The notes: generated from the sequence alone by a model not told the origin. Counted from the stretch's first letter, positions 48,620-54,026 are shown. The stretch: DNA of 64,000 nt from Candidatus Omnitrophota bacterium (GCA_016201795.1 JACQCF010000020.1:5651-69650); one strand, 5' to 3'. A program made the numbers and translations.

Positions 48620-50158
48620 GTGATGGGTGCAAAGCAGTTACAATATACGGAAGCCGGCGTCGTCAAAGCTGTTCGCGGCTGTATCGTTCTTGTGAGAGGT
48701 TTGCACCATTGTATTAATGGACAGCTGATGACCTTCGGTTATGGCACCATGGGCATGGTGATTGGTTTTAATGAACAGGAAGCCCAGGTTCTGATTATTA
48801 AAGAAACCGAGAAAATTAAAGCCGGGGATAAGGCCATTGCCTCCATTGAACCGTTTGAAATGCCGGTCGGGGAAAAATTCATTGGGCGCATTGTGAATGT
48901 CTTGGCAGAGCCCCTGGACGGTTTAGGCCCTATTGCCTATGATCAAATGTATCCCATTTTTTCTGAAGCCCCGCCGATTCTGGCGCGTCAGCCTTTAAAT
49001 AAAACGTTGGAAACAGGCATTAAAGTTTTGGATGTTATGACTCCCATCGGTCTTGGCCAGCGTGAGTTAATCCTGGGGGATAAGGGAACGGGCAAAACAA
49101 CTTTTGTGACGGATACGATTCTCAATCAAAAACATACCGGCCTCATATGCATTTATGTGGCCATCGGTAAACCCAAATCCGCTCTGGCTAAAATCGTGCA
49201 GTTGTTTAAAGACCACGATTGTTTCAAGTACAGTTTGATTATTTGTGCCGGGGCATCGTCTGTGCCCGGCCAACAGTATTTGGCGCCGTATGTCGCCTGT
49301 TCAGTGGCAGAATATTTTTTGCATCAGGGCAAGAATGTTTTTATTGGATTTGATGATTTGACCAAACACGCCTGGTGTTATCGGGAAATTTCGCTGTTGC
49401 TGGGCCGCCCTCCCGGACGCGACTCTTATCCCGGAGATATTTTCTATCTGCATTCGAAGATGATCGAGCGCGCCTGTTATCTGGATGAAAAACACGGGGG
49501 TGGGTCCATGACTTTTTTCCCCATTGTGGAGATCCTCGAAGGTGACCTGACGGCTTTTGTGCCTTCCAACCTGGTTTCCATGACCGATGGACAAATTTAT
49601 TTAAGCAGTTCGCTTTTTGGCGAAGGCCAAAAGCCCGCCTTGGATTTGGGTTTATCTATTTCCCGTGTTGGCTCCAAAGTACAATGGCCGGCGATCAAAT
49701 CTCTTTCCGGCCCTTTACGTTTGGAATATTTGCAGTATAGGGAATTACTACGCATTTCCAAACTCAAAACCACCGGCTATTCTGATGAAACTCTGGAGAA
49801 GCTCAAACGCGGGGCGATTTTGACCGAAATTTTGCGTCAGGATAAGGACAGGCCCGTGATACAGGAGATTCAAGTGATGATTTTTTATGCCTTTACCAGG
49901 AAAATGCTCGATGAATTAACCATTCCCGAAGTCAGGATTTTCCAGGATGAAATCCTTGAGTATACGTGCAAGAATAATCCGGATTTATTAACACTGTTAA
50001 AAGAAAAGCGCAGGCTTGATCCGGATATTGAAAAAGGCATCAGCAGCGTCGTTGGCGCTTATGTGCAAGCATTGATGGGGCAACGTAAGCAGCAATCTTT
50101 GGATCAGCGGGATGATGAGGCGGCCGAGCTTCAGCCGGCGCAGGCCAAAGGGGTCTAA
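48620..50158 (+). CDS. F-type ATPase alpha-subunit homolog (divergent)
   Basis: Alpha-type N-terminal beta-barrel, P-loop GDKGTGKT (canonical GDRQTGKT). Long colinear match to AtpA: CIYVAIGKPKSALAKIV, YLAPYVACSVAEYF, LLLGRPPGRDSYPGDIFYLHSKMIERA. Confidence 0.8.
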   Translation: MMGAKQLQYTEAGVVKAVRGCIVLVRGLHHCINGQLMTFGYGTMGMVIGFNEQEAQVLIIKETEKIKAGDKAIASIEPFEMPVGEKFIGRIVNVLAEPLDGLGPIAYDQMYPIFSEAPPILARQPLNKTLETGIKVLDVMTPIGLGQRELILGDKGTGKTTFVTDTILNQKHTGLICIYVAIGKPKSALAKIVQLFKDHDCFKYSLIICAGASSVPGQQYLAPYVACSVAEYFLHQGKNVFIGFDDLTKHAWCYREISLLLGRPPGRDSYPGDIFYLHSKMIERACYLDEKHGGGSMTFFPIVEILEGDLTAFVPSNLVSMTDGQIYLSSSLFGEGQKPALDLGLSISRVGSKVQWPAIKSLSGPLRLEYLQYRELLRISKLKTTGYSDETLEKLKRGAILTEILRQDKDRPVIQEIQVMIFYAFTRKMLDELTIPEVRIFQDEILEYTCKNNPDLLTLLKEKRRLDPDIEKGISSVVGAYVQALMGQRKQQSLDQRDDEAAELQPAQAKGV

Positions 50159-50163
50159 AATAT

Positions 50164-50466
50164 ATGGCTCAAAACAGAACCAATTTTCGCTGCACCATTC
50201 TCAGTCCCCAAAATTTAATATTTGAAGACGATGTGAACAGTTTGTTTATTATTGGCGATAGAAGCGAATATGAACTGTTAGCGTATCATTATCCTTTGGT
50301 TGGTCTTATTCAAAAAGGAGATATTATCATAGACGCCAAGCGCCGTATTTCGATACGTTCCGGCATCTTACGATTTTTCGCCAATGAATGTACGATCTTA
50401 ATTGAGGACACCGAGCATACGTTTGCCTCTGGCCGGCGTTCTTTGGATGAGGTGATTAAACTTTAA
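50164..50466 (+). CDS. F-type ATPase epsilon-subunit homolog (short, beta-sandwich only)
   Basis: 100 aa. Pattern L.ILSPQ...FE..V..L.I.G..SEYELLAYHYPLVGLI..G.I...  ...RISIRSGILRF...CTILIED matches the AtpC N-terminal domain. Lacks the C-terminal inhibitory helices. Confidence 0.6.
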   Translation: MAQNRTNFRCTILSPQNLIFEDDVNSLFIIGDRSEYELLAYHYPLVGLIQKGDIIIDAKRRISIRSGILRFFANECTILIEDTEHTFASGRRSLDEVIKL

Positions 50467-50485
50467 GTAAAGCGAAGGCTTTGGT

Positions 50486-50704
50486 ATGTTAGCCGACACA
50501 TTTATTATTCTTACGGTCATGTTTATTGCGGTCATGGGGCCATCGGTGGTGGTGGCCATTTTAGGCTATGCGGTCATCAAAGCTTTAAGCCGTAATCCGT
50601 CGGCCGCTTCCAAAATTTTTATGGGCATGGCGATCATGCTGGTGTTTGTCGAGGCCATTGCGGTGGTAGCGATTTTAATCATTTTTCAGATGTTTGGTAA
50701 GTAG
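50486..50704 (+). CDS. F-type ATPase c-subunit (proteolipid)
   Basis: 72-aa helical hairpin with RNP polar loop and conserved TM2 carboxylate (MLVFVEAIAVVAILI). Confidence 0.7.
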   Translation: MLADTFIILTVMFIAVMGPSVVVAILGYAVIKALSRNPSAASKIFMGMAIMLVFVEAIAVVAILIIFQMFGK

Positions 50705-51709: not shown

Positions 51710-51721
51710 AGGTATTGTTGT

Positions 51722-52576
51722 ATGGGCAAAGCCGGTAAAGTGAAAACCGAACTCACGGAAGTCAGGGACCTGGTGGATTTGGTTCAGGTGCTCAAAGATG
51801 TGGCGGACATAAAATATTACGCCTTGTCGACTCAGAAAGTGAAATTCAATCGTTTCAGCGAATCGTTCACGGAGTTTTTTCGTTTAATTGGTTTCTCTTC
51901 GCTGAGCCATCCTTTGGTCAACAATGATAACCCTCAAACGGCGATCGTTATTATATCGACGGAATACGGTTTCGTTGGTAATTTGAATACCCGTGTGGTT
52001 ACCCGTGCCATGGAAGAATGGGAGAAAAATCCGGGCGCATCGCTGGTGACGGTTGGTAAAAAAGGGCTGATGCAATTGGAGTCCATGGGGCAAAAAAGTG
52101 TTAAGACCTGGGAGGACGTTCAGGAGCGCGGTTTTTATGAAGTAGCCGTTGAAATCAAAGATTATCTGGTTAAGGAGGTCATGGAAGGTCGTTTGGGCAA
52201 AGTCATCGTGGTTTATCCATGGCCTCAGGATTATACGGTGATTAAACCACGGGCGGTCAAACTTTTGCCCTGCGAAGACCTGCTCCCTAAGCAAAAACAA
52301 AGTGTGGAGAGTTTTCAACAGGTGATTGAAGAGTCTGATCCGGCGGATATCATCGGTTTTTTATCCAACCTTTGGCTGACTTCGAAGATTTATGAAATTT
52401 TTTATGATACGAATCTGGCAGCAGCAGCAGCTCAAACGCAGCAGTTGGATAACAGTTTGGGAAAAATACGCAAAGAGAGGGATATCGTAAAATTAAAATA
52501 CCACAAAATCCGTCGTGGAGATATCGATAAGAGTTTGCGGGAGGTTTTCTCAGCCAGAATGATGGCCATCAAATGA
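51722..52576 (+). CDS. F-type ATPase gamma-subunit homolog
   Basis: 284 aa, size and N-terminal/C-terminal heptad helices consistent with AtpG. Position between the stator and beta genes. Similarity is weaker than for alpha/beta. Confidence 0.5.
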
Positions 52577-52601
52577 GGCGGGGTCTGCCAAGGAGATAGG
52601 G

Positions 52602-54026
52602 TTGGATCAAGTAGTTTTCAGAACAACTTTAGAGATTAAAAAGAATACCGGCCGTGTAGCCTCCGTGCAGGGGCTGGTGGTGGATGTACGTTTTTTGGAA
52701 GATGAAGAAGTCCCTGCCGTTTATGATTGTATTGAAACTTTTGCCTTTGATGGACGGCGCATCGTCCTGCAAACCGCCGAACATGTGGGACCGGGGTTGG
52801 TCAAATGTGTTTCTTTGACGGAGACGCTTAACCTTCAGCTGGGAGCGCCATGCACGAATACCAAAAAACCTATTACCATTCCCATTGGCGACGGCTGTTT
52901 TGGCCGGGTGATGGACTCTTCAGGAAATCCTTTGGATAATGCCGGCCCTTATCAATGTCCGACGACTGTGCCCATTCGCCGTCCCTTGGAGCAAGTCACA
53001 TTTGATCTTAAAAAGAAAGCCCGTGAAACTCCCGAGATTCTGGAAACGGGGATTAAATACATTGATCTTTTGTATCCTATGATTAAGGGAAGTAAGATGG
53101 GCATCTTAGGCGGCGCCGGCTGCGGCAAAACCATCGTCATTCTGGAGCTTATCAATAATATTGTGAGATCCCATAGCGGCGCTTGCGTCTTTACCGGTAT
53201 CGGCGAGCGTATCCGTGAAGGTAATGAGCTTTTTTTTGAATTGGCAGAAAATCAGCTTCTTTCCAAGGTCATGCTGGCTTTCGGCCAGATGGATCAGCCG
53301 CCGGGTGCGCGCGCCGAAGTGGTGAACGTGGGACTGACGATGGCGGAGTATCTTTTGTCTAAAAATAAAGACGTACTTTTGTTTATGGATAATTTGTATC
53401 GGTTTATCCAAGGAGGTCAGGAAGTTTCCACCTTGTTAGGACGTGTTCCGGCGGAGACGGGTTATCAGCCGACTTTGGCCTCTGAGGTCAACACCGTTCA
53501 GGAACATATCCGTTCGGTTGAAGGCGGCGGTTCCATCACCGCCATACAAGCCGTTTATGTGCCGGCGGATGATATGACGGATCCGGCGGTGGTGGCGATT
53601 TCCGCGACCTTAGACGGTGTAATTGTTCTTTCGCGCGATTTGATCCAGCGCGGTATATATCCGGCCATCGACCCTTTGCAAAGCTCCTGCACGAATTTGG
53701 ATACTAACGTCATCGGTCGTCATCATTATGAGGTGGCCCAAGAGGTGATTCAGTGTTTTAGTAAACACCATGCGCTCAAACGTATTGTGGCCGTGATTGG
53801 CCTGGAAGAGTTAAGCAAGGAAGATCAAAAGATTTATAAACGCGCCGATAAACTGTATCATTTTATGACGCAGCCGTTTACTGTCAGCGAGATTTTTACC
53901 GGTAAAAAAGGCGAATATGTGCCTCTGGAAGACGGCATGATCGGCTGCGAACGTATTCTGCGCGGCGATTACGATCATATGCAAGCTCAGGATTTTTATA
54001 TGCTTGGCCGCGCGCCCAAGATTTAA
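52602..54026 (+). CDS. F-type ATPase beta-subunit homolog
   Basis: P-loop GGAGCGKT (canonical GGAGVGKT), catalytic [67 protein letters not shown]-like EELSKEDQK. Confidence 0.85.

Follow-up and report, generated by a model that had tools for sequence, protein, structure and literature searches.

Rotary F-type ATPases are textbook ion-coupled machines. The type III secretion system (T3SS) and the flagellum use an F1-related export ATPase, FliI, working with FliH, which resembles the b and delta subunits, and FliJ, which resembles gamma. For the N-ATPases, another F-type group, we know of no link to secretion genes. Their operon follows the order atpDCQRBEFAG and includes the genes for subunit a, AtpQ and AtpR (Dibrova et al. 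2010, PMC2881411). In Mycoplasma, the surface MIB-MIP system depends on the Type 3 F1-like ATPase, which co-purifies with it, and just 5′ of the alpha-like gene of this ATPase lies one for a signal-peptide protein that has extracellular domains and transmembrane (TM) helices at its C-terminus (Berlureau 2026, PMC12994834). The Mycoplasma clusters contain no homologues of c or b and have an X0 sector made of 3-TM and 12-TM proteins (Beven 2012, PMC3369863). Closest to the present case, Seymour et al. 2023 (PMC10066038) reported a "non-respiratory" or "symbiotic" F-type ATPase beside "type-4a pilus" clusters in the Omnitrophota. It was found in 56 of 111 Velamenicoccia species, including V. archaeovorus LiM, and in every class, and ATPase and pilus genes lay within 10 kb of each other on 57 of 66 contigs. 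Its alpha subunit clustered with the Mycoplasma type 2/3 F1-like ATPases, and a role in attachment or motility on host cells was proposed. Here we analysed a 64-kb stretch of DNA (the window) from a Candidatus Omnitrophota metagenome-assembled genome (MAG), which carries seven tightly packed F-type ATPase genes at 48620-54026 on the plus strand, in the order alpha-epsilon-c-c2-b/delta-gamma-beta, next to genes of a type II secretion system (T2SS). We read the encoded complex as a rotary motor that hydrolyses ATP as part of a secretion or pilus machine, and not as the ATP synthase of the cell, with a probability of about 0.55.

The module is the same system as the symbiotic F-ATPase/pilus locus of Seymour et al. 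2023, in which divergent alpha and beta genes lie within 10 kb of pilus/T2SS genes. A gamma in NCBI with 100% identity to that of the window, encoded on an 82.5-kb contig, carries the annotation Candidatus Omnitrophica. That description rests on alpha phylogeny and co-location and calls the neighbour a type-4a pilus, whereas the pilin found here passes the equivalog cutoff for GspG, a T2SS protein. The linkage of ATPase and secretion genes was already published in 2023, and the novelty implied by the initial annotation of this DNA was therefore overstated. The subunit anatomy and the question of an a-less state appear to be undescribed. In the portions of the 2023 text and supplements available to us, we found no description of c, c2, the b/delta fusion, the short epsilon or the a-less state, nor of the repeat-protein and unk435 partners encoded upstream or of gene interleaving. 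The literature available in part likewise gave no published description of a failure to meet the Mycoplasma type 2/3 thresholds.

The initial annotation had described a seven-gene F-type set in an order unlike that of canonical and N-ATPase operons and in a secretion-gene setting, and these points hold. All seven open reading frames (ORFs) are in place, profile searches back the subunit assignments, and the quoted motifs are all present, including EELSKEDQK and a stretch whose 23 protein letters are not shown here. Gaps inside the block are 5-25 nt. The block is flanked on its 5′ side, across 12 nt, by the gene for unk435, a membrane-anchored periplasmic protein, and on its 3′ side by gspE, whose start lies 2 nt from the beta stop. 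A promoter and terminator scan of the window gave no usable operon boundaries. From gene order and spacing, the ATPase genes are predicted to be co-operonic with a T2SS-type pseudopilus machine (GspE/F/G/K, PilMNO), a repeat protein and unk435.

The initial annotation had named lack of secretion linkage in related genomes as one of two findings that would refute it, the other being a sole, rearranged housekeeping ATP synthase with atpB elsewhere. Neither check refuted it, and the linkage proved to be conserved. We compared 57 related loci (module loci in relatives are labelled L001 onward), comprising 40 from GTDB species representatives, 12 from metagenomes and 5 from distant relatives. The GTDB loci were found by scanning species representatives with a gamma alignment, and all come from Omnitrophota MAGs; many of these (L006, L009, L014, L017-L021 and others) are titled "uncultured Planctomycetales", probably a submitter-level mislabel. 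In all 45 related loci that extend at least 600 nt past beta, gspE lies 3′ of beta, down to 21% gamma identity (43 were counted automatically, and L013 and L027, both with gspE directly after beta, were added). The median beta-gspE gap is about 15 nt across the family. In L016, a 1,149-aa signal-peptide protein is encoded between beta and gspE (4984-8433), and this is the only locus in which the two genes are not adjacent.

Where sequence reaches, the 40 GTDB and 12 metagenome loci share the order rep868-unk435-alpha-epsilon-c-(c2)-b/delta-gamma-beta-gspE-gspF-(peptidase)-gspG-pseudopilins-gspK-pilMN-pilO. Loci whose gamma is about 35-40% identical to that of the window keep this order with c2 absent. 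Among distant relatives (gamma identity 21-33%), gspE still directly follows beta despite other internal orders: L056 and L057 keep the window gene order, and L059 and L060 have epsilon-c-b/delta-alpha-gamma-beta, which is the canonical atpE-F/H-A-G-D order minus atpB. In L058 (gamma 27% identical) the order is c-b/delta-alpha-gamma-beta-gspE-epsilon-gspF, with the epsilon gene at 6801-7055. As epsilon lies between gspE and gspF there, the ATPase and secretion genes are interleaved. The first canonical operon down the gamma match list, at 20% identity, is L062, which is of Lachnospiraceae type, has the order atpI-?-a-c-b/delta-alpha-gamma-beta and lies among housekeeping genes.

These comparisons bear on a rival account of the block, that it is a rearranged housekeeping ATP synthase whose adjacency to secretion genes is inherited synteny without functional meaning. 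Alpha and beta are indeed closest to canonical F1 families and all taxon-named relatives fall in one phylum. However, the linkage survives changes of order and the interleaving in L058 with gaps of 2-15 nt kept, and gamma, epsilon, c and b/delta all score far under the NCBIfam family cutoffs. Other ATP synthases also seem to be available in the phylum. Locus L036, which carries the module, belongs to Candidatus Aceula lacicola MAG_3300035698_1100; a V-type ATP synthase is listed for all Ace Lake Omnitrophota, including Aceula, in Table 2 of Williams et al. 2021 (PMC8542988), and the supplementary taxon descriptions of Seymour et al. 2023 (PMC10066038) agree for A. lacicola. The latter study also distinguishes separate "respiratory" F-ATPase clades in the phylum. 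We therefore regard the housekeeping account as very improbable. The claim of the initial annotation that this is not the housekeeping enzyme is supported by what is reported for this relative, and the module is probably not the only ATP synthase.

In the portion of the Seymour et al. 2023 source data available (PMC10066038), genome 221 has the KEGG orthology (KO) entries K02111 and K02112 and none of K02108, K02109, K02110, K02113, K02114 and K02115. This absence is weak evidence because KO models also miss the gamma, epsilon, c and b/delta proteins of the module. A 2026 preprint on 176 complete Omnitrophota genomes (bioRxiv 10.64898/2026.06.07.730766) found alpha and beta KOs in 125. At strict thresholds the gamma KO was found in only 30, which is consistent with the divergence of gamma in the module. 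For most Gorgyraeia, the preprint put the share with V/A-type ATPase subunits at 70-99%.

The F1 head retains the residues expected of an active enzyme. In alpha, the P-loop GDKGTGKT (nt 49076-49099) and the Arg finger in LSISRVG (nt 49652-49672) are both present, and K159 and T160 of the former and R349 of the latter are invariant in 27 family members. The beta subunit has the P-loop GGAGCGKT (nt 53109-53132), GERIREG (nt 53202-53222), a further motif stretch whose 16 protein letters are not shown, and a DELSEED-like EELSKEDQK (nt 53805-53831). Across 36 family members the beta P-loop and GERIREG are invariant, as are D263, N264, R267 and F268 of DNLYRF, and the Cys in the P-loop is a family signature. 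With Walker A, the catalytic Glu and the alpha Arg finger kept, the catalytic alpha3beta3 core is predicted to be intact. A decaying, non-functional remnant of an F-type operon might be suspected from the missing a and the divergent gamma, epsilon and c, but the ORFs are intact in dozens of species, the catalytic residues do not vary, and no other protein of the module is as conserved as alpha, beta and c, whose mean identities to the window are 74%, 79% and 81%. Decay is thus barely credible.

Other parts of the head are reduced or divergent. Alpha scored 433-465 bits against solved bacterial F1 alpha chains, with alignments beginning at chain residue 21-29. Since the alpha family always starts about 20 residues later than canonical chains, it has no delta-binding N-terminal helix. 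The initial annotation had called epsilon a beta-sandwich only; ATP-synt_DE_N is its sole match, and the C-terminal helical hairpin is absent throughout the family alignment, in which the conserved region stops at the sandwich and the tails are short or acidic and variable. In canonical enzymes the epsilon C-terminal helices inhibit hydrolysis, so that an epsilon of this form would place no such brake on it. Gamma is highly divergent from canonical sequences, with an exhaustive HMMER search returning 960 representatives at E <= 1e-3 among 1.84 billion, and both gamma and epsilon score above Pfam cutoffs and below NCBIfam equivalog cutoffs.

The membrane rotor is represented by two genes. The c subunit has the loop SRNPSAASK and a carboxylate, E56, within FVEAIAV (nt 50645-50665). 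Across 34 sequences neither E56 nor the RNPSA loop nor a GPS motif varies, and the Glu and RNPS persist in distant relatives. Identity of c across the family is 62-89%. A glycine-rich GxGxGxG packing motif is usual in TM1 of F-type c subunits. It is absent from TM1 of the window c, where the only glycines are G18 and G27, and the conservation of c without this motif suggests that the geometry of the ring differs from that of usual F-type rings. The initial annotation had also pointed to a second, divergent c-like hairpin. Profile-profile alignment (hhalign) of the c2 and c families gave a probability of 97.7% (E 1.4e-12) with 69 columns in register, which identifies c2 as a true c paralog. Its TM2 Glu is not invariant and its gene is missing in L034, L039 and L044-L055; by these comparisons c2 is a putative lineage-specific extra copy of c.

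The b/delta protein matches PF00213 over residues 174-238 (E 3.9e-11), PF00430 and, weakly and at full length, TIGR03321 (residues 1-237). Clear delta (OSCP) matches are confined to its C-terminal part. As alpha has no N-terminal helix and only the C-terminal part of delta is clearly matched, the peripheral stalk is predicted to attach to the head differently. In L062, a canonical Lachnospiraceae-type atp operon that includes a, a single 264-aa product (6900-7694) matches both ATP-synt_B and OSCP. The fusion alone therefore does not imply loss of a.

A gene for subunit a was not found in the window or the related loci by any of the searches made. The initial annotation had reported it absent from the 64-kb window, and hydropathy, Pfam and hidden Markov model (HMM) scans all agree. 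The only window ORFs with at least four predicted TM helices are MraY, FtsW, a DUF2304 protein and an STT3-like glycosyltransferase (hydropathy scan and Pfam). An a-subunit HMM, built from 120 Firmicutes-type sequences of narrow taxonomic range and run with filters off on six-frame ORFs of at least 40 aa from the window and 62 loci (817 kb), gave a best E value of 4 in the window and E > 0.7 for every non-control ORF. In the positive control, the L062 operon, it gave 404 bits to the sole match. No a gene was found within about 10 kb in the 57 related loci, no a (PF00119) with a stator Arg is encoded beside other Fo genes in the window or these loci, and no locus examined contained an unassigned multi-TM gene. 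A gene of 270-320 aa in the gspF-gspG interval of relatives ("U2") had been suspected of encoding a, and it proved to encode a secreted HExxH Peptidase_MA_2 protein. Nor did we see a convincing conserved charged TM residue that could substitute for the stator Arg in c2, b/delta, unk435, GspF, PilMN or PilO. An a gene separated from c and b would be unusual for atp operons.

We hold tentatively, at somewhat under even odds, that the complex is truly a-less, a rotary motor of F1, c ring and b/delta that would use ATP hydrolysis to do mechanical work across a diderm's inner membrane. The alternative is an ion-translocating F1Fo, acting as pump or synthase, with its a encoded elsewhere or too divergent for detection and its genes merely co-transcribed with those for secretion, for example for local energising of the membrane. 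The strongest point for it is the invariant c glutamate, joined by the RNP loop and the level of c identity; the scores of alpha and beta exceed the cutoffs for atpA and atpD, the complex has a b/delta stalk, and the canonical L062 operon combines a fusion of this kind with a. On the other hand, a is missing near the module in 57 of 57 loci while the other subunits stay in a tight operon despite rearrangement. Epsilon has no regulatory domain, alpha has no delta-binding helix, and relatives are reported to have V-type ATP synthases. On balance, we consider an ion-translocating enzyme possible but doubtful.

Comparison with described families places the module nearest to genuine F1Fo enzymes. 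Alpha and beta pass the canonical equivalogs, and gamma, the epsilon N-domain, the c carboxylate, b and delta are all recognisable, including a gamma/epsilon stalk and a c with its membrane carboxylate. The module differs from the canonical atpIBEFHAGDC operon in having no a and no AtpI, a fused b/delta, a shortened epsilon and alpha, and a place in a secretion operon. Separate b and delta subunits, with the delta N-domain on the alpha N-helix, are not found. It resembles the N-ATPases in being a second divergent F-type complex with a long b matching TIGR03321 at full length and no separate delta gene. Unlike the module, the N-ATPase operon has a, AtpQ, AtpR and another gene order, and the module has c2, a c paralog, and no a. 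Scores on the NCBIfam alt_F1F0 models were 463 for alpha (cutoff 750), 444 for beta (752), 20 for gamma (282) and 48 for b (225), none reaching its threshold. The FliI complex has no c ring and is built from six copies of one ATPase, whereas the module has distinct alpha and beta paralogs that scored 160-200 bits on FliI/SctN models with cutoffs of 380-700. The comparison to FliI, FliJ and FliH drawn in the initial annotation stands as analogy only.

The label "type 2/3" implies that the module belongs to the Mycoplasma Type 2/Type 3 families of F1-like X0 ATPases. Several features agree with this: alpha clusters with these types in the tree of Seymour et al. 2023 (PMC10066038), and the two share an F1-derived alpha3beta3-gamma-epsilon without a, linked to a surface system and present (probably so for the module) besides a normal ATP synthase, as well as an alpha without the N-terminal helix and a signal-peptide protein with C-terminal anchor(s) encoded just 5′ of alpha. 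In the last case the likeness of unk435 to the Mycoplasma Type 3 upstream protein is one of topology only, with no sequence match to any MSC_06xx model. Scores on the Mycoplasma NCBIfam models were well under cutoff for MMOB1660 (396, cutoff 600), MMOB1670 (412, cutoff 850), MSC_0619 (299, cutoff 520) and MSC_0618 (378, cutoff 570), and all four are below the module's scores on genuine atpA and atpD. Beta scored 335 bits against the M. mobile G1-ATPase beta (9io5_A) versus 395-450 bits against solved F1 beta chains. Unlike the Mycoplasma systems, the Omnitrophota module has a c with its carboxylate, a b/delta stalk, no 12-TM protein in any locus and a diderm T2SS-type operon. Membership of the Mycoplasma families is therefore improbable, and by these membership tests the module is best described as a putative divergent offshoot of genuine F1Fo, neither Mycoplasma- nor N-type.

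Positions of the ATPase genes and of their neighbours are collected in Table 1. The remaining window genes are housekeeping genes (ligA, the dcw cluster, glycine cleavage), which indicates chromosomal DNA. Elsewhere in the window, a 1,491-aa ORF (9808-14283, plus strand) has a class-I fructose-bisphosphate aldolase domain as its sole recognised domain (residues 1015-1369), with about 1,000 N-terminal residues without annotation.

Table 1. ATPase module and neighbouring secretion genes in the 64-kb window, with the matches on which each assignment is based.
Feature	Position	Strand	Assignment and evidence
GspC-like protein (weak)	38445-39023	+	T2SSC E 0.0025, GspC_delta E 0.0055, both under cutoffs; module membership uncertain
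Secretin	39020-40666	+	GspD-type outer-membrane channel; Pfam Secretin 166 bits, Secretin_N 71 bits
TPR protein	40686-41447	+	Pfam
FGE-sulfatase-domain protein	41486-43060	+	Pfam
FGE-sulfatase-domain protein	43023-44681	+	Pfam
rep868	44691-47297	+	868-aa secreted repeat protein; no Pfam/NCBIfam match
unk435	47300-48607	+	435 aa; always immediately 5′ of ATPase genes
alpha	48620-50158	+	TIGR00962 atpA 506 bits (cutoff 484); Pfam ATP-synt_ab 230 bits
epsilon	50164-50466	+	100 aa; PF02823 (ATP-synt_DE_N beta-sandwich) 32 bits, residues 8-81
c	50486-50704	+	rotor proteolipid; PF00137 28 bits (cutoff 24)
c2 (c′)	50711-50938	+	two-helix hairpin, divergent c paralog; no Pfam/NCBIfam match
b/delta fusion	50948-51709	+	253 aa; N-terminal TM helix, b-like coiled coil, delta (OSCP) C-terminal domain
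gamma	51722-52576	+	central shaft; PF00231 96 bits; TIGR01146 77 bits (under cutoff of 194)
beta	52602-54026	+	TIGR01039 atpD 527 bits (cutoff 463)
GspE	54029-55732	+	T2SSE 428 bits; N-terminal MshEN 66 bits
GspF platform protein	55737-56942	+	T2SSF 171 bits
GspG major pseudopilin	57038-57472	+	TIGR01710 142 bits (cutoff 89); T2SSG match
Minor pseudopilin	~57453-57854	+	N_methyl match
Minor pseudopilin	57851-58444	+	N_methyl match
GspK	58444-59475	+	T2SSK_1st match
PilM-PilN fusion	59565-61007	+	inner-membrane assembly platform; Pfam PilM_2, PilN
PilO	61008-61562	+	inner-membrane assembly platform; Pfam PilO
TPR protein	61562-62251	+	listed with inner-membrane assembly platform; Pfam TPR

The secretion genes encode GspD, GspE, GspF, GspG and minor pseudopilins including GspK, as in a T2SS, and a GspL/GspM platform was not found. 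As the platform consists of a PilM-PilN fusion and PilO, as in type IV pili (T4P), the machine is a T2SS/T4P hybrid. The best NCBIfam models for GspE and GspF are those of the T2SS proteins, both below cutoff. In most relatives (including L003, L020, L036 and L056) the gspF-gspG interval holds the gene for the secreted HExxH metallopeptidase (Peptidase_MA_2, about 270-320 aa); in the window this interval (56943-57037) is a 95-nt gap without a peptidase gene. The GspE of the window carries MshEN, and those of L056 (2751-4985) and L057 (11111-13273) have a C-terminal PilZ as well. In L060 a response-regulator GGDEF gene (5852-6745) lies directly 5′ of epsilon. Together, the MshEN, PilZ and GGDEF domains are hints of cyclic-di-GMP control of the machine.

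Two proteins encoded upstream of alpha are candidate partners. The rep868 protein has a signal peptide and an N-terminal region rich in beta structure. A 13-residue repeat, GVNWxDxxxLSxx, occurs in it in about 30 tandem copies, and a coiled coil is predicted at its C-terminus. Its homologues, encoded directly 5′ of unk435, range from about 500 to 1900 aa or more, many being cut by contig ends, and their length varies through repeat number. The AlphaFold2 model of unk435 (pLDDT 82) has a signal peptide, two modules each combining a beta-sandwich with a three-helix bundle, a long helix and a C-terminal TM anchor. The family comprises 123 proteins without a Pfam domain, and the taxon names given are Omnitrophota only. 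In L059 and L060 the gene directly 5′ of the ATPase genes encodes a giant protein (about 1,950-2,050 aa, truncated where the contig stops) whose C-terminal part is the unk435 region, and this fusion suggests that the repeat protein and the anchor work together. Further upstream, the TPR and two FGE-sulfatase-domain proteins are possible cargo or accessory genes; they were not seen beside the module in relatives, whose upstream flanks contain no FGE homologues.

In the mechanism that we favour, the F1 head (alpha3beta3-gamma-epsilon) would sit on a membrane rotor of c subunits, joined in the window by an additional c paralog, and the b/delta stalk would hold alpha3beta3 in place. The complex would run in the hydrolysis direction, with ATP turning gamma, epsilon and the c ring against the held head, and torque or conformational work would pass to the adjacent envelope machinery and not into an ion gradient. 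The load may be either the secretion platform or unk435, the periplasmic protein anchored at its C-terminus, together with the repeat protein, and the output would be the deployment, movement or secretion of surface proteins for contacting other cells. As read from gene content and conservation, the subunit set, the invariant catalytic residues, the interleaved and conserved linkage, the lack of a nearby a, the short epsilon and the unk435 fusion all argue for such a motor. Seymour et al. 2023 (PMC10066038) independently read the complex as non-respiratory. By analogy, the Mycoplasma Type 3 ATPase is a precedent for an F1-like motor that serves a surface system. The proposal of the initial annotation, a specialised rotary ATPase tied to a T2SS/T4P machine, is thus supported by the conserved linkage and by the V-type synthase of a relative, with its function inferred.

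Several points weigh against a motor of this kind. The invariant E56 and RNP loop of c are most simply explained by ion binding, which normally needs a, and by the NCBIfam equivalog cutoffs alpha and beta count as genuine atpA and atpD. The unk435 model gave no informative fold match, leaving this partner with no recognisable fold relative. The KO-based absence of other subunits in the literature is weak evidence, and the physical association of ATPase and secretion machine is predicted from gene linkage.

If the motor reading is correct, an a-less motor would power a T2SS/T4P-type machine or a giant surface protein anchored in the membrane, and would not move ions. A rotor ring and stalk without an ion channel in a secretion operon would be a new use of rotary torque at the cell envelope. 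It would be the third independent re-use of F1, after T3SS/flagellar export and Mycoplasma, and the first in which the c ring is retained as a mechanical rotor. The idea of a motor is plausible because the F1-like ATPases of Mycoplasma have been tied experimentally to gliding and antibody cleavage, and the Omnitrophota module would stand beside them as a second, independent and structurally different case. Our analysis argues for correcting the "Mycoplasma type 2/3" label, and the anatomy described here provides targets for further work, namely a c ring with an invariant Glu, a b/delta fusion, a short epsilon, the lack of a, the unk435 and repeat-protein partners, and the interleaving in L058. 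The Omnitrophota, across much of which the module is found, are ultra-small bacteria whose way of life is probably predatory or parasitic, and the module could explain how they deploy very large surface proteins.

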